64,000 bases of DNA from Spirochaetia bacterium (GTDB lineage Bacteria > Spirochaetota > Spirochaetia > SZUA-6 > Bin103): the NCBI GenBank assembly GCA_965203905.1, contig CBDBDQ010000005.1, positions 5,024,001-5,088,000 of the forward strand, given 5' to 3'. The stretch's first letter is position 1. Each line of letters starts with the position of its first letter. The notes beneath the pieces are model-generated. The model was not told where the DNA came from, made no database searches, and saw only the letters and a program-made list of their open reading frames with translations. Position numbers and translations under genes: made by a program. Shown here one piece after another: positions 11,549-53,368 of this stretch.

Positions 11549-12806
11549 CAGGACTATCCCACGCTAACGCGAAAGCCGGCTGCAAGTCGTTGCTTCCGTT
11601 GCCCTCGGACCGACGCTCAACCCCCAACTCGCACCCCGGCGAGCGCGGATCACGTGACCCCGTCTGGCGGCGGTCCGTACTCCCGATGCCGGAAGCGGTT
11701 GTGGGCAGCACAATGAAGCCTGAGATTACCCGGCTCGGCGCTGCCGCCGAGCGCGAAGGGAACGATGTGGTCGAGCTGCAGCAGGAAGCGCGACCCGCAG
11801 CGCCGCCCAGTGTGCGGATCGACGTAACTGCAGCAGCCACCGTCGCGGCGCCACACCTCGCGCCGCACTGGTGCCGGAATGTAGCGGGATCGACGCGCCC
11901 GGTGGGGCGGCTGCGCGCTGCCTCCGGACGGGCCGGCTGCCGCCGCCTGCGGCCGCGAACGGCCGTCGAGTAGCGCCGCTCCTGTCCGCTTCGCCGCCCC
12001 TGTCCGCTTCGCTGGCGAAGGAGCGCTGCGACCACGATCCACCGCTACCAGCGCGGTCGGCATGCTCTGGTCTGCCGGCGGCGTCGGTCGTGGCGCCGGT
12101 GCGGTGGCGTGGGACCCACGATCGGCCACCGACTTCGGCGCCGAAGCAGCGGAGCCGGGCGCCGCCGTCGCTGGCTTGGCACGCACCGGGGATGCTGCCC
12201 GCGCAAGTCTCGCGCCCCGACGGCGGCGCGGACAGCGCCGAGGTGCCGGCGCCGCCATTCCCGCGCGCGGGTTCCTCTGCGGATAGCGCTGCTGGCGCCG
12301 GGGTACTGCCACCGGCGCTCGTGCCCTCCGGCGGCGTCGACTCTCCGGGTTGCTCTTGCGCGTCCCGCTTCGCCGGCGAAGCCGCCCCGCCTGCCGGCCC
12401 TTGCTGCGCCCTCGGCGCCGGTGCCTGGCCCGCGCTTGCCTCCCGGCGCCCACCTCGGCGCCCGCGCGGCGGCCGCCCCGGGTCGTAGCGCTGCAGGCCG
12501 TCCTGCACCAGCCGCTCGACGAGCTGCCCCAGCGTCAGGTGCGGGTCCACGTGCGACAGCAGTGCCCGTAGCTGCTCGATCCCGCACTGACAGGCAGATT
12601 CGATCACCACCTTCAGCTCCCAGCGGCCGTCCCCCAGCGCCCGCATGCGATCGGCCGGCCGCGCCAGCTCGGGAGCCACACCGGCCAACAACTGCTTCAC
12701 CTCGCGGGTGCTCTTGCCGCTCGCCTGCGCCACCAACTCCTGCCGCTGCGCCGCGTCCAACGCCGGCACCGCTCGCGCCGGCGCCGCTGCCGCGGTCCCC
12801 GAAGCC
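11549..12806 (-). mobile_element. HNH element copy 1 (5'-truncated, frameshifted ~12190)
   Basis: End repeat CAGGACTATCCCACGCT at 11549; trailer and HNH domain (RYIPAPVRREVWRRDGGCC...LDHIVPFALGG...NLRLHCAAHN) match the other copies; similarity stops at ~12806. Confidence 0.88.
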
Positions 12807-24424: not shown

Positions 24425-26560
24425 GAGGACTACCCCTCGCTACGCGACAAGCCGGCTGCAGTCGTTACGACCGTCGCCATCGGACCGACGCCCAACCGCC
24501 CAATTCGCACCCTGGCGAGCGCCGATCACTTGGGCCCGTCTGGCGGCGGTCCGTACTCCCGATGCCGGAAACGGTGGTGGGCAGCACAGCGAACGCGGAG
24601 ATTTCCCGGCTCTGCGCTGCCGCCGAGCGCAAAGGGAACGATGTGGTCGAGCTGCAGCAGAAAGCGGGAGCCGCAGCGCCGCCCGCTGTGCGGATCGACG
24701 TAACTGCAGCAGCCGCGGTCGCGGCGCCACACCTCACGCCGCACGGCTGCCGGAATGTACCGGGATCGACGCGCCCGGTGGGGCGCCTGCGCGCTGCCTC
24801 CGGACGTGCCGGCAGCCCGGCTCGTCCGCGAACGGCCATCGGTCTGCGCCGCTCCTGCCCGTTTCGCTGGCGAAGGAGCGTTGCGACCGCGATCCGCTGC
24901 TGCCGTCGCGGTCGGCATGCCCTGGTCTACCGGCGGCGTCGGCCGTGGCGTCGGTACGGTGGCGTGGGACCCGCGATCTGCCACCGACTTCGCTGCCGAA
25001 GCAGCGGTGCCGGGCTCAGTCGCCGATGGCTTGGTACTCACCGGGGTGGTGCTGGCGCAAGTCTCGCGCCCCGATGGCGGCGCGGACAACGCTGCCGGCG
25101 TCGAGGTGGTGGCGCCGCCAATCCCGCGTGCGGGTTCCTCTGCGGACAGCGCTGCCGGCGCCGGGGTGCTGCCACCGGCGCTCGTGCCCGCCGGCGTCGG
25201 CGGCACTCCGGGTTGCTGTTGCGCGTCTCGCTTCGCTGGCGAAGCCGCCCCGACTGCCGGCTCTTCCTGCGCCTTCGGCTCCGGCGCCTGGCCCGCGCTT
25301 GCCTCCCGGTGCCCACCTCTGCGCCCGCGCGGCGGCCGCCCCGGGTCGTAGCGCTGCAGGCCGTCCTGCACCAGCCGCTCCACCAGCTGCCCCAGCGTCA
25401 GGTGCGGGTCCACGTGCGACAGCAGTGCCCGTAGCTGCTCGATCCCGCGCTGACACGCGGCGTCGATCACCACCTTCAGCTCCCAGCGGCCCTCGCCCAG
25501 CGCCCGCAGGCGATCGGCCGGCCGCGCCAGCTCGGGAGCCACCCCGGCCAACAACTGCTTCACCTCGCGGGTGCTCTTGCCGCTCGCCTGCGCCACCAGC
25601 TCCTGCCGCTGCGCCGCGTCCAGCGCCGGCACCGGTCGCGCCGGCGCCGCTGCCGCGGTCCCCGAAGCCCCAGCCTCCGGTGCCGGCCCCGTGGCGCCCG
25701 GCAGCAGCTCCGGTGCCGCGGATGCCGAGCCGGGGTCCGCGGCGGCGGTCGCCGTGCGCTGCAGGAGATCGAAGGTGTTCTGCAACTGCGCCGCCGCGCT
25801 CAGGGAGAGCGAGCCGTCCTGCAGCCGCTCGCGTGACCCGGCGGTATCGGAGCACAGGCGCATGGCTTTGATACGGCGCCAGGCGGCGCCTTCGCTGTAG
25901 CCCAGTTCGCGTACCGCGTAGTCGAACAGGCTGGAGAACCCGAGGCGCAGGTGCAGGTGGCGGGCGTGGATCTCGCGCAGGTGGTCGAGGACGGCGAGCT
26001 GCAGCGCCTGCTCGTGCAGGACGAGGGACCTGGTGTGCGCCAGCAGCACTTGGTCGGGGAGCCCGGAGAGCGAGGAGGAGAAGCCGGTTGCGGTCGCGGT
26101 ATCCATGGCGTAAATATAAGCATGGCTGAGAAATGCCCGGTTTCTGCGAGTCCCGGGACGGGCACCTGGGAGGGTGCAGGCGGGCGCTGGCGGGGTGCTG
26201 ACGGGCCTGCGCGGCGTGGGGGGATGTTCGAAGGGTCGGAGGGGCCGGAACGTGCGGCAGGGGGCCGTTACGAGCAGCGCCAAACCCGTCAAGTGCTGAG
26301 CGCATTTTTTTGGCACTTTTCGCAGAATCCTGCGAGTCCTGCACCTCAGCGCCGACGTGGCAACAATGCAGCGGCGGAGACCGGCGTCGCGGGTCCCCGG
26401 CGCCCCGCTCATTTCTGGACATCTCGTACAGCGAACGAACCATGCACCCTGAGGGCGGCGACCTGGCAGGCGCCGGGGCCACCATCGTCGCTCGGCCACT
26501 ACCTTCCAGAAGATCCCTGCCACACAGGATGCAGACGGCGTTCAGCATGGGATGGTCTTG
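24425..26560 (-). mobile_element. HNH element copy 2 (complete)
   Basis: Ends GAGGACTACCCCTCGCT / AGCATGGGATGGTCTTG; leader and trailer shared with copies 3 and 4. Confidence 0.85.
24526..26106 (-). CDS. HNH endonuclease with DUF222-like helical N-domain (526 aa)
   Basis: LHLRLGFSSLFDYAVRELGYSEGAAWRRIKAMRL; C-terminal CC..RCG..LDHIVPFALGG..NLRVRCAAHH. Confidence 0.9.
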   Translation of the reverse strand: MDTATATGFSSSLSGLPDQVLLAHTRSLVLHEQALQLAVLDHLREIHARHLHLRLGFSSLFDYAVRELGYSEGAAWRRIKAMRLCSDTAGSRERLQDGSLSLSAAAQLQNTFDLLQRTATAAADPGSASAAPELLPGATGPAPEAGASGTAAAAPARPVPALDAAQRQELVAQASGKSTREVKQLLAGVAPELARPADRLRALGEGRWELKVVIDAACQRGIEQLRALLSHVDPHLTLGQLVERLVQDGLQRYDPGRPPRGRRGGHREASAGQAPEPKAQEEPAVGAASPAKRDAQQQPGVPPTPAGTSAGGSTPAPAALSAEEPARGIGGATTSTPAALSAPPSGRETCASTTPVSTKPSATEPGTAASAAKSVADRGSHATVPTPRPTPPVDQGMPTATAAADRGRNAPSPAKRAGAAQTDGRSRTSRAAGTSGGSAQAPHRARRSRYIPAAVRREVWRRDRGCCSYVDPHSGRRCGSRFLLQLDHIVPFALGGSAEPGNLRVRCAAHHRFRHREYGPPPDGPK

Positions 26561-35886: not shown

Positions 35887-37987
35887 TAGGGCCATCCCAT
35901 GCTGAACGACGTCTGAGTCCTGTGTGGGGCCGAGCCGCGGTGACGGCCCCGGCGGCAGCGCCTGCCGGATCGCCGCCTTCAGGGTGTGTGGTTTCGTTCG
36001 CTGCACGATGTGTCCAGGAATGAGCGGGTAGCCGCCCACCGCAACGCCGGTCTCCACCGATGCGTTGCTGCCACGTCGGCGCCGCGGGGCAGGATTCTGC
36101 AAAAAGTGTCAAAAAAAGCTCGCTGAGCACTTGACGGGTTTGGCGCCGCTCGTGACGGCCCCCAGCCGCACGTTCCGGCCCCTCCGACCCTTCGAGCATC
36201 CCGCCACGCCCTCCAGGCCCGTCAGCACCCCGCCAGCGCCGGCCTGCACCCTTTCCGGTGCCGGTCCGGGACTCGCCGAAACCGTCCATTTCTCAGCCAT
36301 GATTATATTTACGCCATGGCTACCGCGACCCCTACCGGCTTCTCCTCCTCGCTCTCCGGGCTCCCCGACCAGGTGCTGCTGGCGCACACCAGGTCCCTCG
36401 TCCTGCATGAGCAGGCGCTGCAGCTCGCCGTCCTCGACCACCTGCGCGAGATCCACGCCCGCCACCTGCACCTGCGCCTCGGGTTCTCCAGCCTTTTCGA
36501 CTACGCGGTACGCGAACTGGGCTACAGCGAAGGTGCCGCGTGGCGCCGTATCAAAGCCATGCGCCTGTGCTCCGATACCGCCGGGTCACGCGAGCGGCTG
36601 CAGGACGGCTCGCTCTCCCTGAGCGCGGCGGCGCAGTTGCAGAACACCTTCGATCTCCTGCAGCGCACGGCCACCACCGCCGCGGACTCCGGCTCCGCAC
36701 CCGCGGCACCGGAGCTGCTGCCGGGCGGCACGGGGCCGGCGCTGGAGGCGGGGGCTTCGGGGGCCGTGGCAGCGGCGTCGGCGCGAGCGGTGCCGGCGTT
36801 GGACGCGGCGCAGCGGCAGGAGCTGGTGGCGCAGGCGAGCGGCAAGAGCACCCGCGAGGTGAAGCAGTTGTTGGCCGGTGTGGCTCCCGAGCTGGCGCCG
36901 CCGGCCGATCGCATGCGGGCGCTGGGGGACGGCCGCTGGGAGCTGAAGGTGGTGATCGACGCCGCCTGTCAGTGCGGGATCGAGCAGCTACGGGGACTGC
37001 TGTCGCACGTGGACCCGCACCTGACGCTGGGGCAGCTGGTGGAGCGGCTGGTGCAGGACGGCCTGCAGCGCTACGACCCGGGGCGGCCGCCGCGCGGGCG
37101 CAGAGGTGGGCGCCGGGAGGCAAGCGCGGGCCAGGCGCTGGAGCCGAAGGCGCAGGAAGAGCCGGCGGGCGGGGCGACTTCGCCGGCGAAGCGGGGCGCG
37201 CAAGAGCAACCCGGAGCGCCGCCGCCGGAGGGCACGAGCGCCGGTGGCAGCACCCCGGCGCCGGCAGAGGAACTCGCGTGCGGGATTGGCGGCGCCGGCA
37301 CCTTGGCGGTGGCAGCGCTGCCCGCGCCGCCGGCGGGGCGCGAGACTTGCGCGGGCAGCACCCCGGTGCGTGCCATGCCAGCGGCGGCGGCGCCCGACAC
37401 CGCTACTTCGGCGGCGAAGTCGGTGGCAGACCGTGGATCCCACGGCACCGCACCGACGCCACGGCGGACGGCGCCGGCAGACCAGGGCAAGCCGACCGCG
37501 CAGGCAGCGGCGGATCGCGGCCGCAGCGCTCCTTCGCCAGCGAAGCGGGCAGGGGCGGCGCAGCTCGATGGCCGTTCGCGGCCGCCGCCGGCACCAGCCG
37601 GCCGCTCCGGAGGCAGCGCGCAGCCGCCCCACCGGGCGCGGCGATCGCGGTACATTCCGGCACCAGTGCGGCGCGCGGTGTGGCGCCGCGACCGCGGCTG
37701 CTGCAGTTACGTCGATCCGCACAGCGGGCGGCGCTGCGGCTCCCGCTTCCTGCTGGAGCTCGACCACATCGTTCCCTTCGCGCTCGGCGGCAGCGCTGAG
37801 CCGCGAAACTTGAGGTTACATTGCGCTGCCCACCATCGCTTCCGGCATCGGGAGTATGGACCGCCGCCGGACGGGACCACATGATCGGTGCTCGTCGGGG
37901 GTTCGAGTTGGGCGGTCGGGTGTCGGTCCGAGGGCAGCGGGAGCAACGACCTACATCCGGCTTGTCGCGCAGCGTGGGATAGTCCTG
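35887..37987 (+). mobile_element. HNH element copy 3 (complete)
   Basis: Ends TAGGGCCATCCCATGCT / AGCGTGGGATAGTCCTG. Confidence 0.88.
36316..37884 (+). CDS. HNH endonuclease with DUF222-like helical N-domain (522 aa)
   Basis: N- and C-domains near-identical to copies 2 and 4. Confidence 0.9.
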   Translation: MATATPTGFSSSLSGLPDQVLLAHTRSLVLHEQALQLAVLDHLREIHARHLHLRLGFSSLFDYAVRELGYSEGAAWRRIKAMRLCSDTAGSRERLQDGSLSLSAAAQLQNTFDLLQRTATTAADSGSAPAAPELLPGGTGPALEAGASGAVAAASARAVPALDAAQRQELVAQASGKSTREVKQLLAGVAPELAPPADRMRALGDGRWELKVVIDAACQCGIEQLRGLLSHVDPHLTLGQLVERLVQDGLQRYDPGRPPRGRRGGRREASAGQALEPKAQEEPAGGATSPAKRGAQEQPGAPPPEGTSAGGSTPAPAEELACGIGGAGTLAVAALPAPPAGRETCAGSTPVRAMPAAAAPDTATSAAKSVADRGSHGTAPTPRRTAPADQGKPTAQAAADRGRSAPSPAKRAGAAQLDGRSRPPPAPAGRSGGSAQPPHRARRSRYIPAPVRRAVWRRDRGCCSYVDPHSGRRCGSRFLLELDHIVPFALGGSAEPRNLRLHCAAHHRFRHREYGPPPDGTT

Positions 37988-47228: not shown

Positions 47229-47645
47229 TCAGAGGATCTCGATGCGTCGTTCGCTACAGACGGAACTGAAGTCGCGGAGGTTGAACGTCAGCATGGCGTC
47301 TACCCTTATGTTGGGATCAGTGATGACGGAGTGCAGTATTGCGTCTACCAGGCTCAACGGATGTCCTGCTTTGGCACGCGCAATCACATCTTCGTAAGCT
47401 GCGTCGCGATAGGGGGAATCGTCGACAAACTCTGTCTCGGGAGCGTTGGCCAAGCGTTCAAACTGAGCAACCTTGTCCGGATCGCGGACCAGCCGTGTAT
47501 TGATCGTCTCGTACAATATGGGCCAGGGCAGAACGGCAGGGAACAGGTCCAACCAATACTGTCTATCAAGCGCCTCGGAATGATAAGGATCACGTGGTTC
47601 TACGAGTGCGAAGAAGAACCCAGAATCGATCAGTATTCGCTGCAT
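47229..47645 (-). CDS. PIN-domain (VapC-like) nuclease
   Basis: ILIDSGFFFAL..RDPYH, ILYET, LSLVD, TFNLRDF. Confidence 0.8.
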   Translation of the reverse strand: MQRILIDSGFFFALVEPRDPYHSEALDRQYWLDLFPAVLPWPILYETINTRLVRDPDKVAQFERLANAPETEFVDDSPYRDAAYEDVIARAKAGHPLSLVDAILHSVITDPNIRVDAMLTFNLRDFSSVCSERRIEIL

Positions 47646-47965
47646 TACTCGTCATCATCACCGTAATCGTCGTCAAGAGTACCGTAGCCATCCCAGGGAG
47701 AACGCTTGCGTCTTCCGAAGATATATTTCCCTTTTGATTTCCCGTTTTCTTTGTAAATCACGTAGATGCGTGACTGTTTACTTAAAGAAATGGTCCTTTC
47801 GATCTCATTCTTCAGGCACTCAACCAAGTCACCGTCGTAGGTGAAATGGAGGGTGGCTACGCTGCTCCCGCACTCCTCGGCACCGTTGTCATCGAGCCAA
47901 GTATACAAGGAGCTGTAATCTCCTCGTACCCCCAGATCAAATGATAACCAGATTCGCGCTGTCAT
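47645..47965 (-). CDS. Small hypothetical protein coupled to PIN gene
   Basis: 106 aa; TAATG stop/start overlap; upstream TCGACA-17-TAGACT promoter. Confidence 0.75.
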   Translation of the reverse strand: MTARIWLSFDLGVRGDYSSLYTWLDDNGAEECGSSVATLHFTYDGDLVECLKNEIERTISLSKQSRIYVIYKENGKSKGKYIFGRRKRSPWDGYGTLDDDYGDDDE

Positions 47966-48022
47966 GGTCGTTGGGAGTCTAGCACGGCACTGGGACCGTG
48001 TCGAGACCTGAGCTTGATGTGA

Positions 48023-48268
48023 CAGGACTGTCCCACGCTACGCGACCAGCCGGCTGCAAGTCGCTGCTCGCGCTGCCCCGGACGACACCCGACTACCCAA
48101 CTCGCACCCTGGCGAGCGTCGATCAGGTGACCTCGTCTGGCGACGATCCGTACTACCGGCTCATTCCTGGACACGTCGTACAGCGAACGAACCCACGCAC
48201 CTGAAGGCGACCTTGGAACATCCCTTGCCCATACGGGATGCAGACGTCGTTCAGCATGGTATGGCCTG
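48023..48268 (-). mobile_element. 246-bp MITE: internal-deletion derivative of the HNH element
   Basis: Trailer end (CAGGACTGTCCCACGCT...last HNH codons) joined at ~48154 to the first ~115 nt of the leader (...AGCATGGTATGGCCTG). Confidence 0.85.
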
Positions 48269-48309
48269 GCACGGTCCCCCAACGGGCCCTTGAACGACGC
48301 CACCGGCAG

Positions 48310-49035
48310 TCGCTGAGCCCGGTCCGTAAAAGCGCGGGCGACGGCGCGCGGATGGGCGCGCTGATCACGCCGGTGGGGCGGTGGCTGGCGCCGTATCAGC
48401 CGGCGCAGCGTTACCACCTGCTTGACCTGCAGCGGGTGGCGGCGGAGGATCTGCCCTACCGCAACCTGCTGCGCGCGGTGGTGCGGCTGGAGCAGAGCCG
48501 GTCGTGGGAGGACGTCAAGCGGGTGATGGGGGCGTTGCAGCGCTGGTTGCCGAAGCGTGGCGCGGAGGAGTTGCGGCGCGGGTTCGTGGATTGGATACGG
48601 CAGATTGCCGAACCGCTGGCGCCGGCGGGAGCGGTGGTGCCGGAGATACGGACGCTGGAGGAGGCGGGAATGTCGTTGGTGGAACGAGTCGCCGAGTGGC
48701 CCAAGCAGTGGCTCCAGGAAGGCCGCGAACAAGGCCTTGCGGAAGGCCGTGCACAGGGCGTTGCGGAAGGCCGTAAACAAGGCCGCGCCCAAGGCGTTGC
48801 GGAAGGCCGTGAACAAGGCCGTGAACAGGGCCTTACCCAGGGGTTCGACCAGCAGCGGACACTGCTGTGCCGGCTGGCGGCGGCGCGCTTCGATGCCGAC
48901 ACCGCCGCCCGCCTGGCCGACCTGCTGGCACCGGTCGCCGACCCGGAACGGCTGGCCGAGGTCGGTGACTGGCTGGTGCGCTGCGACACCGCCGCCAAGT
49001 TCCTCGCCCGCTTCGATCCCGCCTCGCGGGGCTGA
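48310..49035 (+). pseudogene. Rpn/YhgA-like protein C-terminal fragment with intact internal small ORF (48670-49035)
   Basis: YQPAQRYHLLD, LEQSRS, MSLVERVAEW..EGREQG repeats; nuclease domain missing; GGAGGAGG before ATG 48670. Confidence 0.75.
48718..48832 (+). repeat. 12/24-bp coding tandem repeats (EGRxQG)
   Basis: GAAGGCCG(C/T)G(A/C)ACA(A/G)GGC units, typical of Rpn C-termini. Confidence 0.8.
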
Positions 49036-49045
49036 CGTCCGCGGT

Positions 49046-51160
49046 CAGGACGCTCCCACGCTACGCGACAAGCCCGCTGCAAGTCGCTGCTCGCGCTGCC
49101 CCGGACCGACACCCGACCACTCAACTCGCACCCCGGCGAGCGTCGATCACGTGGCCCCGTCTGGCGACGATCCGTAGTCCCGATGCCGGAGACGGTGGTG
49201 AGCAGCGCAATGTAGCCTGAGATTACCCGGCTCGGCGCTGCCGCCAAGCGCGAAGGGAACGATGTGGTCGAGCTCCAGCAGGAAGCGGGAGCCGCAGCGC
49301 CGGCCGCTGTGCGGATCGACGTAACTGCAGCAGCCGCCGTCGCGGAGCCACACCTCGCGCCGCACGGGTGCCGGAATGTAGCGGGATCGGCGTGCCCGGT
49401 GGGGCGGCCGCGCGCTGCCTGCGGAGGGGCCGGCTGCTGCCGGCCGCGGCGGCGCTCGGCCATCGGCCTGCACCGCCGCCGCTACCCGCTGCGCCGCCCC
49501 TGCCCGCTTCGCTGGCGAAGGAGCGCTGCGACCGCGATCCGCCGCTGCCTGGGCGGTCGGCATGCCCTGGTCTGGCGGCCGTGACGCCGGTACCGTGCCG
49601 CGGGACCCACGATCTGCCACCGACTTCGCTGGCGAAGCAACGGCGCCGGGCGCCGCCACCGCTGGCCGGGCACTCACCGGGGTGCTGCTGCCCCAAGTCT
49701 CGCGCCCCGCCGGCGCCACGGACAGCGCTGCCAGCGCCGCGGTGCCGGCGCCGCCATTCCCGCGCGCGGGTTCCTCTGCGGACAGCGCTGCCGGCGCCGG
49801 GGTGCTGCCACCAGCGCTCGTGCCCTCCGGCGTCGGCGACACTCCGGGTTGCTGTTGCGCGCCCCGCTTCGCCGGCGAAGTCGCACCGCCGGCCGGCCCT
49901 TCCTGCGCCTTCGGCTCCGGCGCCGGGCCCGCGCTTGCCTCGCGGCGCCCACCCTTGCGCCCGCGTGGCGGTCGCCCGGGGTCGTAGCGCTGCAGACCGT
50001 CCTGCACCAGCCGCTCCACGAGCTGCCCCAGCGTCAGGTGCGGGTCCACGTGCGACAGCAGTGCCCGTAGCTGCTCGATCCCGAGCTGACAGGCAGAGTC
50101 GATCGCCACCTTCAGCTCCCAGCGGCCGTCGCCCAGTGCCCGCATGCGATCGGCCGGCCGCGCCACCTCGGGAGCCACCCCGGCCAACAACTGCTTCACC
50201 TCGCGGGTGCTCTTGCCGCTCGCCTGCGCCACCAGCTCCTGCCGCTGCGTCGCCCCCAGCGCCGGCACCGGGCTCAGTGGCGTCGCTGCCGCGGCCCCGG
50301 AAGCCCCAGCTTCCGGAGTCGTCTCTGCACCGCGCAGGAGCAGCTCCGGTGCCGCGGGTGCCGAGCCGGGGTCCGCGGCACCGGTCGCCGTGCGCTGCAG
50401 GAGATCGAAGGTGTTCTGCAACTGCGCCGCCGCGCTCAGGGTGAGCGAGCCGTCCTGCAGCCGCTCGCGGGTCCCGGCGGTCTCGGAGCACAGGCGCATC
50501 GCCTTTATGCGGCGCCAGGCGGCGCCTTCGCTATAGCCCAGTTCGCCCACCGCGTAGTCGAACAGGCTGGAGAACCCGAGGCGCAGGTGCAGGTGGCGCG
50601 CCTGGATCTCGCGCAGGTGGTCGAGGACGGCGAGTTGCAGCGCCTGCTCGTGCAGGACGAGGGACCTGGTATGCGCCAGCAGCACCTGGTCGGGGAGCCC
50701 GGAGAGCGAGGAGGAGAAGCCGGGAGCGCTTACGGTAGGCATGGCGTAAATATAATCATGGATGAGAAATGGCCGGTTACGGCAAGTCCCGGAACCGGCG
50801 CCGGGAAGGGTGCAGGCCGGCGCTGGCGGGTGCTGGCGGGCCTGGAGGGCGTGACGGGATGTTCGAAGGGTCGGAGGGGCCGGAATGTGCGGCAGCGGGC
50901 CGTCACGAGCAGCGCCAAACCCGTCAAGTGCCCAGCGCACTTTTTTTTGGCACTTTGCAGAATCCTGCACCCTGGCGGCGACGTGGCAGCAACGCAGCGG
51001 CGGAGATCGGCGTTGCGGGTGGGCGGCAACGGCTCATACTTGGACATGTCGTACAGCGAACGACCCACGCACCCTGAGGCGGCGATCTGGCAGGGGCCGG
51101 CCATCACCGCAGTTCGGCCACACACGGGATTCAGACGTCGTTCAGCATGGGATGGCCCTG
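49046..51160 (-). mobile_element. HNH element copy 4 (complete)
   Basis: Ends CAGGACGCTCCCACGCT / AGCATGGGATGGCCCTG. Confidence 0.88.
49147..50742 (-). CDS. HNH endonuclease with DUF222-like helical N-domain (531 aa)
   Basis: Same domains as copies 2 and 3. Confidence 0.9.
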   Translation of the reverse strand: MPTVSAPGFSSSLSGLPDQVLLAHTRSLVLHEQALQLAVLDHLREIQARHLHLRLGFSSLFDYAVGELGYSEGAAWRRIKAMRLCSETAGTRERLQDGSLTLSAAAQLQNTFDLLQRTATGAADPGSAPAAPELLLRGAETTPEAGASGAAAATPLSPVPALGATQRQELVAQASGKSTREVKQLLAGVAPEVARPADRMRALGDGRWELKVAIDSACQLGIEQLRALLSHVDPHLTLGQLVERLVQDGLQRYDPGRPPRGRKGGRREASAGPAPEPKAQEGPAGGATSPAKRGAQQQPGVSPTPEGTSAGGSTPAPAALSAEEPARGNGGAGTAALAALSVAPAGRETWGSSTPVSARPAVAAPGAVASPAKSVADRGSRGTVPASRPPDQGMPTAQAAADRGRSAPSPAKRAGAAQRVAAAVQADGRAPPRPAAAGPSAGSARPPHRARRSRYIPAPVRREVWLRDGGCCSYVDPHSGRRCGSRFLLELDHIVPFALGGSAEPGNLRLHCAAHHRLRHRDYGSSPDGAT

Positions 51161-51254
51161 TTGATGTGACGACGAACCTGCCCACGTCCGACATGGGGGA
51201 GACAGTCGGTGCAAGCTGGCACTGGCGAACTGATAACGATCCTGGCGTAGTACA

Positions 51255-52095
51255 GGGACGCAACGCGATGCCGTCGCGGCGCTGGCGGTCGTGACCGCCG
51301 TACAGGAGCGTGGCGCGATCGGTGGCAACGCTGGTGTGCCGGCACCACCAGCGCAGGCCGGCGGCCAGTTCCGGCGCCACGGTCTGCGCCAACTTGATCT
51401 CGACCGGGTGCGGCGTTCCGGCATGCTCGATCACCAGATCGACCTCGTGGCCGGTACGGTCGCGCCAGAAGTACAGTGGCGGCTGCAGCCGGTGGTGGCG
51501 ATACGCCTTGATCACCTCGCCGACGAGGTAGTTCTCGAACTACGACCCGCGCAGGGGGTGGGTGACCAACTGCCGTTCATCGCTGACGCCGAGCAGGTGG
51601 CAGGCGAGGCCGGTGTCGACGAAGTAGACCTTGGGGCTCTTCACCAGGCGCTTGTTGTAGTTGCGATGATAGGGCCGTAGCAGGTGGATCACGAAGCTGG
51701 TAGCCAGGACCGATGTCCAGCGCCGCGCGGTGTCCACCGCCACCCCGCAGTCGTTGGCCAGGGACGCGCATCAACAGGAGGTTCTGCGATCCCGTCAGGA
51801 TGTAGTTCCCGGTGTGCTCGGGGTGGTCGACGGCGACCTGGATCGCCGAGGGCAGATCGGGGACGCGCTGCACCTCGTCGATGATCACCGGCGGCCGATA
51901 GCGGTCCAGGAAGCCGTGCGGATCCTCACGCGCAAAGCGGCGCGACTCGGTGTCCTCAAGGGTTACGTAATCGAACGCCGGAAAGGCCGCCCGTGCCAGC
52001 GTGGTCTTGCCCGATTGGCGCGGGCCGGTGAGCGTGACGACCGGATAGTAGCCCACGTCACGAGCCAGGTACGTATGCAGCGTGCGCCGCAGCAT
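51255..52095 (-). pseudogene. AAA_14/DUF4143 ATP-binding protein, deleted and frameshifted
   Basis: TGPRQSGKTT, IIDEVQR, ILTGSQ, KSPKVYFVDTGL, FWRDRTGHEVD..VEIK. Confidence 0.85.
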
Positions 52096-52192
52096 AGGTG
52101 TCAGATTTACGATCCAAAGCAAATTTGACAAATCGTGATGCACCTGGAGTTGCGCGGTGCGGAGTGTTCCGATAGAGTTGGTCGTTGGAACC

Positions 52193-53368
52193 ATGGCCGC
52201 TGTCCGCCAACCGCTGAACGAGGTAACCCGCTCGATGCGCGTGCGCTGGTATCGCAGTCCGATCGAGCCACAGGTGCTGCGGCGCCTGATGCAGCGCAGC
52301 GACCTGCAGGGCTGGCTGCAAGCGGGGGGCAATCTGGCGCTGTTGGCCGCCACCGCGACGCTCACCTGGTACCTGTTCCTGCAGCAGGCGTGGGTCGGCT
52401 TCGCGCTGGCGCTCTATCTCCATTGCACGGTCGGCAGCTTCCTCAGCGCCGCCTGTCACGAGCTGGACCACGGCACCGTGTTCAAGACCAAGCGGCTCAA
52501 CCGCATCTTCCTGCGCGTTTACTCGTTGCTGGCATGGTTCAACTTTCATGACTACGCTCTCAGCCACACCTACCACCACCGCTACACGCTGCATCCGGAC
52601 GGCGATCGCGAGGTAGTGCTGCCGCAGTCGCCGACGCTGCGCTGGCTGTACGTGCTGCAATTGCTGACGATCAACATCACCGGCGGGCCGATGTGTCGCG
52701 GCTTGTGGCCGATCCTCCGCTACACCGTGACCGCAGCGCTCGGGTTGCCGATGAGGGCGGACACGGTCGGCGATACCGAGCCGGTCGGCGTGCGCGCCCA
52801 GGAATGGATCGTAGCCCTGTACCAGGCGCACCCGGAAGAGCGGCGCAAGTCGATTCGCTGGGCGCAGATCCTGCTGCTGTTCCACGGCGCGGTGCTGGTG
52901 GTGGCGATCGCCTCCGGGCTGTGGCTGTTGCCGGTGCTGATCAGCCTGCCGGCGGCGGTAGCCAACTGGTGGCGCTACCTGGTGTTCATGCCGATGCACT
53001 GCGGCCTGCGCGACAATGTCGCCGACTTCCGCAAGTGCGTGCGCAGCATCAAGATCGACCCGGTCTCATCGTTCCTGTACTGGCGCATGAACTGGCACAT
53101 GGAGCATCACATGTACGCCGGCGTGCCGTGCTACAACCTGCGCCGGCTCAGCCGCACGATCGCCGCCGACTGCCCCCCGCCGCGCACCCTTATCGGCGCC
53201 TGGCGCGAAATGCGCGTCGCCTGGGTGCGCCAGCGCACGGATCCCGACTACCAGTACGACACGCCGGTGCCGACCCCGGCGCACACCGCGGCTGCAAACG
53301 GTACCCGCACCGACGACGCGCTCGGTGGCTCCATCGGCGACCTGGCGCCGGTCGTGCTCGAGCGATAG
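52193..53368 (+). CDS. Fatty acid desaturase family protein
   Basis: His boxes HELDH, HTYHH, HMEHH. Confidence 0.88.
   Translation: MAAVRQPLNEVTRSMRVRWYRSPIEPQVLRRLMQRSDLQGWLQAGGNLALLAATATLTWYLFLQQAWVGFALALYLHCTVGSFLSAACHELDHGTVFKTKRLNRIFLRVYSLLAWFNFHDYALSHTYHHRYTLHPDGDREVVLPQSPTLRWLYVLQLLTINITGGPMCRGLWPILRYTVTAALGLPMRADTVGDTEPVGVRAQEWIVALYQAHPEERRKSIRWAQILLLFHGAVLVVAIASGLWLLPVLISLPAAVANWWRYLVFMPMHCGLRDNVADFRKCVRSIKIDPVSSFLYWRMNWHMEHHMYAGVPCYNLRRLSRTIAADCPPPRTLIGAWREMRVAWVRQRTDPDYQYDTPVPTPAHTAAANGTRTDDALGGSIGDLAPVVLER

Follow-up and report, generated by a model that had tools for sequence, protein, structure and literature searches.

A block of Rpn-derived DNA between two copies of an IS-like HNH element lies within one 9-bp target duplication in a Spirochaetia genome

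Compound transposons such as Tn5, Tn9 and Tn10 are built from two insertion sequence (IS) copies that bracket passenger DNA and whose outermost ends act together under DDE transposases; in Tn5 and Tn10 one 9-bp target duplication surrounds the whole unit and none is found at the inner ends. IS26 also relies on a DDE enzyme, which works through a replicative or a targeted-conservative mechanism. Here we describe a block of comparable layout in a 64-kb window (the whole stretch of DNA analysed, 64,000 nucleotides from a Spirochaetia bacterium), where two copies of an IS-like element encoding an HNH-nuclease protein, one of them internally deleted, flank DNA derived from an Rpn gene. The block resembles transposons of the Tn5, Tn9 and Tn10 type in its IS-cargo-IS order and in its single outer duplication of family length, and differs from them in that no DDE gene is present, one flank is a 246-bp deletion derivative and the movement of the unit is read from its structure. 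With IS26 pseudo-compound transposons and cointegrates it shares direct copies, a duplication at the outer ends only and recombination between copies, whereas for the HNH element family nothing like the known DDE mechanism of IS26 has been described. We consider that the block most likely moved to its intergenic site as one compound transposon using its two outer ends, with a probability of roughly 55%. The element family itself is of larger interest than the block.

One duplication around two element copies

The block (positions 48023-51160, about 3.1 kb) consists of two element copies in the same orientation, the first internally deleted and the second full-length, with about 0.8 kb of Rpn-derived DNA between them. 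Its parts and borders are as follows.

48014-48022, no strand assigned: left 9-bp target duplication, TTGATGTGA, directly outside the terminus of L1
48023-48268, + strand: internally deleted element copy, 246 bp, delimited by end alignments
~48023-48159: L1, left end of the deleted copy, ~137 bp, with its terminal inverted repeat (TIR) at 48023-48039
~48157-48268: R1, right end of the deleted copy, ~112 bp, with its terminus at 48252-48268 (+/-1 bp)
48269-49045, + strand: passenger DNA, remnant of an Rpn/YhgA-like gene, 777 bp, delimited by alignment with a paralog
49046-51160, + strand: full-length element, here called copy 4, 2115 bp
49046-49182: L2, left end of copy 4, with its TIR at 49046-49062
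49147-50742, - strand: the single gene of copy 4, 531 amino acids (aa)
51030-51160: R2, right end of copy 4, with its TIR at 51144-51160
51161-51169, no strand assigned: right 9-bp target duplication, TTGATGTGA, directly outside the terminus of R2

The 9-mer TTGATGTGA occurs exactly twice in the window, at these two places and both times on the + strand. The perfect bracket had been claimed by a first-pass annotation of this DNA; termini defined independently of that annotation, by aligning 42 left and 38 right ends together with the adjoining sequence, put the two 9-mers in direct contact with the outer termini of L1 (48023) and R2 (51160) at an offset of zero. As that annotation also observed, the inner ends have no flanks in common: taken alone, the short copy lies between TTGATGTGA and CACGGTCCC (0/9 matching) and copy 4 between GTCCGCGGT and TTGATGTGA (2/9 matching). 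Both element copies, together with the Rpn-derived DNA between them, are thus enclosed in one duplication bracket, and no separate duplication flanks either copy.

That the match is accidental, or that the 9-mer forms part of the element or of some recurrent target sequence, is so improbable as to be close to negligible. Shuffled versions of the window held on average 0.18 matches to TTGATGTGA, and 2 of 100 shuffles reached two matches anywhere. Against this stands the exact placement at the outer termini with zero offset, for which base composition gives a probability of 8.4e-7 at a fixed place for the A+T-rich TTGATGTGA and 9.4e-6 for any 9-mer match, over only 33 facing pairs of termini at most 20 kb apart in the whole genome. 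Genome-wide, TTGATGTGA is found 19 times on both strands versus 13.4 expected and is therefore not a repeated motif. Since the flanks of the other element copies differ and are unrelated in the genome-wide end alignments, the 9-mer is not part of the element consensus either, a possibility that the first-pass annotation had itself named as fatal to its claim. Contigs from four public runs, belonging to four studies, carry both outer junctions, and the arrangement is therefore not an assembly artefact. TTGATGTGA is a genuine target-site duplication (TSD) from an IS-like transposon family.

L1 and R2 form a proper left/right pair in direct orientation, with one mismatch to the family 17-mer in L1 (CAGGACTGTCCCACGCT) and none in R2 (reverse complement CAGGGCCATCCCATGCT). 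The block accordingly shows the structural features of a compound transposon: two copies of the same IS flank passenger DNA, the outermost ends make a proper inverted pair, and a single duplication of family length (mode 9 bp) is present at the outer ends only. To call the short copy a miniature inverted-repeat transposable element (MITE), as was done initially, overstates it. MITEs are present as many short copies, each with its own duplication, while this is the only short left-plus-right unit found genome-wide and is without one. It is a one-off derivative by internal deletion, in which L1 is joined directly to R1 at a CG/CGG microhomology; one C has been lost at its right end, so that its terminus falls at 48268 or 48269.

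The element family and its HNH protein

The genome (G000; 7.99 Mb, 66% G+C) harbours about 45 copies of the element, whose members measure about 2.1 kb. BLAST with the ends of the full copy returned 47 left-end and 47 right-end hits, and the 42 left and 38 right ends aligned with their unrelated flanks cease to be similar abruptly, at a single column. The first bases of the left end are CAGGACTATCCCACGC / CAGGACTATCCCACGCT and the last of the right end CATGGGATGGCCCTG / AGCATGGGATGGCCCTG, the two ends forming imperfect TIRs of 17 bp with the consensus CAGGrCnATCCCAyGCT. Target duplications are 8-10 bp long, mostly 9 bp. When flanks were tabulated across the genome, a check that the first-pass annotation had proposed, exact repeats of at least 8 bp were found in 13/31 left/right pairs (seven of 9 bp, four of 8 and two of 10) versus 3/930 mismatched-pair controls, with further pairs among the 31 matching at 8/9 or 7/9. 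Furthermore, when the flanks of 421 loosely defined termini were all compared with one another, 18 matches appeared versus 1.6 expected, 15 of which involve good termini, one of these being the 48023-51160 unit. Other clean duplications are AGCGCCCGT, AAGCGAGAAG, AAGGCTCAC, GCGCGGTGG and GCATCGCCAT. The family thus has two hallmarks of an IS with TIRs and TSDs, namely defined termini common to many copies with unrelated flanks and duplications of fixed length.

Related subfamilies point in the same direction. A genome of the same genus (G004) contains a different subfamily with copies 98-99% identical to each other, and all five complete copies have perfect 23-bp repeats (GGGTGsGAACGCsGAAAGCGGTA); four of the five are flanked by exact repeats of 8-9 bp (TTATGTGGA, TAATGTTG, CTCGGTGC, GCGTCGGA) and the fifth by a 7/8 match. 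A third family, on chromosomes of other Spirochaetia metagenome-assembled genomes, has a repeat of about 25 bp (GGGTCTTCAGGAAT...), and its five copies with both ends defined comprise three with exact 8-bp repeats, one with 7/8 and one with none. For two of four tested G004 insertions the flanks lie side by side without the element in genomes of two other species, separated by 50-202 bp in G006 and by 56-107 bp in G001; these empty sites hold at the level of gene neighbourhood, base-level alignment having been lost to intergenic divergence. Empty sites were found for the G004 subfamily and not for the copies of the genome studied here. A blind scan for TIRs with TSDs over 80 loci of relatives, of low power, gave 8/80 versus 4/80 and 2/80 in controls. 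The sequence of the terminal repeat differs between the three protein subfamilies, which is expected if each encoded protein reads its own ends and argues, though not decisively, against mobilization by an unrelated enzyme.

The protein encoded by copy 4 has three parts.

residues ~1-265: DNA-binding domain, with a ParB/KorB-like helix-turn-helix (HTH) and a ribbon-helix-helix (RHH)-like part
residues ~266-450: low-complexity (disordered) linker
residues 482-521: HNH nuclease (PF01844, 22.4 bits versus a cut-off of 21.4)

Pfam recognizes only the HNH domain in the 531 aa, and the only NCBIfam match is a weak one to IscB (17 bits) over the HNH region. The motif C...C...DH...N...C..HH is conserved in 23 of the 30 open reading frames (ORFs) picked, the other seven being frameshifted or mis-picked. 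Relatives of the N-terminal 265 residues are numerous, making up a family for which 6,799 cluster representatives were retrieved at E up to 1e-3. In an AlphaFold model built from a 41-sequence alignment (predicted local distance difference test score 85, predicted template modelling score 0.70), this part is helical with one hairpin. Its best structural matches, which are weak, are the HTH domains of ParB, KorB and SopB (Z 7.0, root-mean-square deviation 3.2 over 99 residues, model residues 31-191), and residues 205-259 match RHH proteins, also weakly (Z ~5); Foldseek against the PDB gave no match at E up to 0.001. Across 26 aligned copies, variability at the codon positions is 0.034/0.019/0.066 in the N-terminal domain and 0.065/0.032/0.136 in the HNH domain, third positions varying 3-4 times as much as second positions in both, while the linker has no periodicity and a long antisense ORF has the wrong pattern. 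The element therefore has one real gene, because only that frame bears the pattern of selection across the 26 copies.

This gene combines an HNH domain with a helical DNA-binding N-terminus, which gives no support to the 'DDE-like' mechanism initially suggested, and that label is best dropped. Searches of the protein with Pfam, NCBIfam and structure comparison found no DDE or RNase-H signal, and the RNase-H-fold transposase that defines a DDE-type IS is thus not encoded. A genome-wide scan with the 17-mer found no DDE gene between such ends, the only genes flanked by paired ends being the HNH gene and those of one Rpn subfamily. Orphan TIR-like hits lacked both a partner end and a transposase; as a reversed control motif gave 10 hits, they appear fortuitous. 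No component resembling a guide RNA was detected, with no Rfam match at E up to 1 and a fold z of +0.77 for the RNA of the right end. A tblastn search of plasmids had no match, and PADLOC gave no hit for the HNH protein or for the ORF across the passenger DNA.

Among the closest described systems are the actinobacterial DUF222-HNH genes, known as the REP13E12 or '13E12 repeat' family in Mycobacterium tuberculosis, which have the same order of a helical N-terminal domain followed by a C-terminal HNH domain. Phage phiRv1 uses REP13E12 as its integration site in M. tuberculosis, and both gene families are used as attachment sites, here by islands of about 67 kb with a P4-type integrase. Neither inverted repeats nor target duplications are described for 13E12 repeats in the literature that our search returned. 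The element protein carries a C-terminal HNH domain as DUF222-HNH proteins do, and it has no match to Pfam DUF222 (PF02720) even at E up to 10, so that it does not belong to that family by this measure. Among 24 distant relatives, three reach DUF222 scores below the threshold (19-22 bits versus a cut-off of 24.4), and in one neighbouring Atlas cluster DUF222 is annotated on 23% of members. A six-frame search of the genome with DUF222 found nine other genes above the cut-off (552-671-aa frames at C5:1180481, 7322239, 764801, 2630590, 4926923, 6710315, 6906958, 7490078 and 5311993) and none of these element copies; homology among the nine begins at a TTGACA-like box and ends with the stop codon, and no shared inverted ends are recognizable. 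The relevant part of one published account describes 13E12 repeats as multi-copy and recombination-prone (PMC13157036), and the HNH element family is alike in both respects.

The nuclease domains nearest to that of the element are the HNH (En) domain of group II intron maturases, which gives the closest solved sequence (6ME0, E = 9e-4), and IscB of the IS200/IS605 group. In the introns, the En domain cuts the bottom strand 9-10 nt from the insertion site. The element differs from both in that it has no reverse transcriptase, no RuvC domain and, in its non-coding ends, no Rfam match or fold signal; in turn, IS200/IS605 elements and introns are without inverted repeats or target duplications, unlike the HNH element. 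The ISAs1 family (ISfinder) has ends that begin with CAGG, duplications of 8-10 bp and a DDE transposase. This suggests a possible likeness to the HNH element in end sequence and duplication length, though not in enzyme, the HNH element having no DDE gene. Our literature search, in which absence is not proof of absence in print, found no element with TIRs and TSDs whose only gene encodes an HNH protein. The related systems that it returned, among them casposons, ISC/IscB elements and KolobokP (a DDD/E transposase with a His-Me finger), all have a separate recombinase.

Several oversized units bracketed by TSDs were dissected and rejected as cargo carriers. C5:7575718-7580434 and C5:4667874-4672278 (about 4.5 kb) each contain a nested 2592-bp element of the IS66 family, which is present in six 100%-identical copies (for example C5:4668269-4670860 and L007:2012-4523), is flanked by an 8-bp duplication (GGAAGGCA) of its own and has a DruA-like (Druantia) gene as its passenger; two of these six insertions lie a short distance upstream of the start codon in HNH elements. 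The 68.9-kb and 69.7-kb units (C5:1893371-1962267 and C5:4748141-4817856) are single elements split at the same internal position by integrase-borne islands of about 67 kb inside the HNH gene. In both islands the first gene is a P4-type tyrosine integrase (L033:1584-2762), and a 17-bp core (GCGTAGTCGAACAGGCT) that encodes SLFDYA, the most conserved motif of the family, is repeated at both island junctions: the multi-copy HNH gene serves as an attachment site. A 12.3-kb unit, too, consists of one element interrupted by another insertion. Together, these units add clean 9-10-bp duplications to the tally of the family.

Elsewhere in the window, two further full copies lie at 24425-26560 (+) and 35887-37987 (-), both without an exact flank repeat, and a left end only of the same element is found at 11549. 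Contig C3 (107 kb) repeats element copies of C5 together with their flanks (C3:28092 = C5:2967977, C3:100410 = C5:5059887) and may be a strain variant or a duplicated region of the assembly. To the right of the block, the gene at 51577-52365 (-) encodes an AAA_14 ATPase that matches the PADLOC candidate defence family PDC-S01 (7.6e-34); the gene is multi-copy in the genus. To its left, 47229-47965 (-) is a module of low G+C content with two small ORFs (138 and 106 aa) that have no family match; it is 84% identical to G004:C6:1194901-1195680, there too directly beside an HNH element, of another subfamily, and the wider neighbourhoods of the two differ.

The Rpn-derived passenger DNA

According to the relevant passages of Zhong et al. 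2023 (PMC10400941), rpn genes, which show no inverted repeats or target duplications and probably are not transposases, spread horizontally without recognizable transposon ends, and in Escherichia coli their variable C-terminal part, made of four-residue repeats, is translated separately as the antitoxin RpnS. The passenger DNA at 48269-49045 aligns to residues 132-314 of a full-length paralog of 314 aa (L017:13817-14761(-) = C5:1245319-1246260). It keeps 81 bp of the paralog's upstream region and about the C-terminal 60% of the coding region, including the tail of four-residue repeats; missing are about 420 bp, with the start codon and the nuclease core. The paralog matches Pfam Transposase_31 at E = 1e-21, bearing out the first-pass identification of an Rpn fragment as cargo. 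An ORF at 48238-49035, starting within R1, spans the passenger DNA; it has no Transposase_31 match in Pfam and is without the PD-(D/E)XK core of that domain that marks Rpn. Since it has no such match and aligns only to residues 132-314 of the paralog, the cargo is a C-terminal remnant. It resembles the published Rpn genes in having retained the variable C-terminal part with its four-residue repeats, the RpnS-type region described in the passages cited above (PMC10400941), and judging from this likeness to the antitoxin-forming part, the passenger may not be inert.

The left boundary of the cargo (GCACGG) recurs at the paralog locus (C5:1.246 Mb), where it abuts the interior of an element of the same family in the same orientation. 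The order there is HNH interior, four extra bases (ATAG) and then GCACGG, the element being truncated from its right side, and the junction resembles either the joint of a tandem duplication or a scar left by repair after the element broke at its right terminus. Because it recurs at this second locus, the element/cargo junction predates both loci, and in an earlier move, too, Rpn DNA was linked to an element. The paralog locus (C5:1231500-1249000, L017) is a segmentally duplicated cluster with three HNH elements that have identical left flanks, and it also holds the full Rpn gene, genes for AAA-ATPase/PDDEXK_9 proteins and a Uma2-like ORF.

A second Rpn gene is found between the ends of this family. 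At C5:5515052-5516341, a unit of 1290 bp contains a complete, different Rpn (Transposase_31) gene, 35-38% identical to the cargo's paralog, between two perfect 17-mers; its three copies (also at C5:3261700 and C5:6957520) share their boundary exactly at the repeat, and the flanks of the unit match at 6/9. This differs from the Rpn genes treated in the cited passages (PMC10400941), which have no inverted repeats, in that one Rpn subfamily lies here between the 17-bp repeats of the HNH element; it is best read as a passenger. The duplications across the family and the 1290-bp Rpn unit support what had been claimed from the window alone: the ends are genuine transposon ends, able to enclose passenger DNA.

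Movement of the block and meaning of the family

In the reading that we favour, the transposition machinery would have used the outermost ends, L1 and R2, and ignored the inner ends, R1 and L2. The enzyme would be the element's own protein, whose N-terminal HTH/RHH-like module may bind the repeats and whose C-terminal HNH nuclease may make the cuts, the target being opened with a stagger of about 9 bp. Compound transposition is the most economical reading, because one event on a pre-existing element-cargo-element arrangement explains both the bracket and the missing inner duplications. The first-pass annotation had stated that the unit was inserted as one piece: the single bracket and the absence of own duplications agree with this, and the counterparts expected of such an insertion, an empty allele or a second copy of the whole unit, did not emerge. 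Movement of this block as one piece is thus likely but inferred.

Several observations weigh against compound transposition. No empty allele of the site, which the first-pass annotation had suggested looking for in related genomes or reads, was found in 41 related genomes; among these the left flank is present only in G004 (84% identity), where it ends at 48013 and is followed by an element of a different subfamily, the right-flank gene lying 9 kb away and inverted. In the four public runs, contigs carry only occupied junctions, with no skip joint among the 15 of 51 joints listed; exact-pattern scans, two of metagenome contigs and one of genome contigs, gave 0 hits for the empty allele, and a search for paralogous empty sites within the genome gave 0 spanning hits for 35 units. 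Nowhere else in the genome does the whole unit occur between different flanks; of its joints, just that between the left element and the cargo is repeated at another locus. At that locus no left end directly follows the Rpn gene, and hence no intact donor arrangement survives. At the level of the family, 18/31 pairs are without an exact repeat of at least 8 bp, although decay and rearrangement are expected of a family that is old here, its copies being only about 80-90% alike. Finally, we know of no HNH-type nuclease that catalyses strand transfer, and the joining of the ends is thus unexplained.

Other points of this kind bear directly on how else the block could have formed. A single full element may have made the TTGATGTGA duplication, with R1, the cargo and L2 entering later by homologous recombination or gene conversion, either from a locus with two elements flanking Rpn DNA or from an excised circle (element end plus cargo) crossing over in the left end; no transposase would then have acted on a compound unit. 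Each of the oversized bracketed units dissected above (two of about 4.5 kb and others of 12.3, 68.9 and 69.7 kb) proved to be one resident element that received an insertion later on, so in this genome a bracket with extra DNA usually reflects such an insertion. The element copies are mosaics of each other whose best relative changes from window to window, copy 4 being a mosaic of many members, and recombination between copies is therefore frequent; the Rpn paralog locus is itself a recombining cluster of these elements. L1 and L2 are 90.5% identical, each other's best match and share derived sites, as homology-driven exchange needs, but because exchange between copies is common this kinship does not discriminate between models, and the differences between L1 and L2 form no crossover pattern. 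Such a secondary acquisition would need the same element-cargo-element donor, of which none survives, plus two crossovers or a circle, and copies only about 80-90% identical are a poor substrate for recombination. We regard it as less likely than compound transposition, yet as a serious rival. A cointegrate-type replicative product, in which an element with Rpn DNA on a circle or other replicon attacked the target and the left copy later lost its interior, is improbable. As in IS26 or Tn3 cointegrates, it would leave element, cargo and element in direct order with the duplication split between the outer junctions, which is what the block shows. L1 and L2 are closest relatives, in its favour; R1 and R2 are not, the best match of R1 being the right end at C5:414611 and that of R2 the one at C5:7057939 (95%). 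Two full direct copies that enclose 156.7 kb are likewise bordered by matching 9-mers on their outer sides (GGCGGGAGG), a case left ambiguous by the recurrence of similar G-rich flanks elsewhere in the family.

Compound transposons are textbook material, yet the element family that forms this one fits no described transposase class. It has sharp inverted repeats, 8-10-bp duplications and a sister lineage with empty sites, and its sole selected gene joins a DNA binder to an HNH nuclease; the locus described here shows that such ends can enclose foreign DNA, derived from Rpn genes. We tentatively propose that the HNH protein could be the transposase of an undescribed prokaryotic IS class with TIRs and TSDs, distantly related to the DUF222-HNH '13E12' genes, which would read its own 17-25-bp repeats, cut the ends, open targets with an 8-10-bp stagger and mobilize foreign DNA lying between two ends, an Rpn fragment here and a whole Rpn gene elsewhere. 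If this is true, a His-Me-finger enzyme would join the short list of transposase chemistries, and the multi-copy DUF222/HNH genes of many bacteria would gain a testable explanation.

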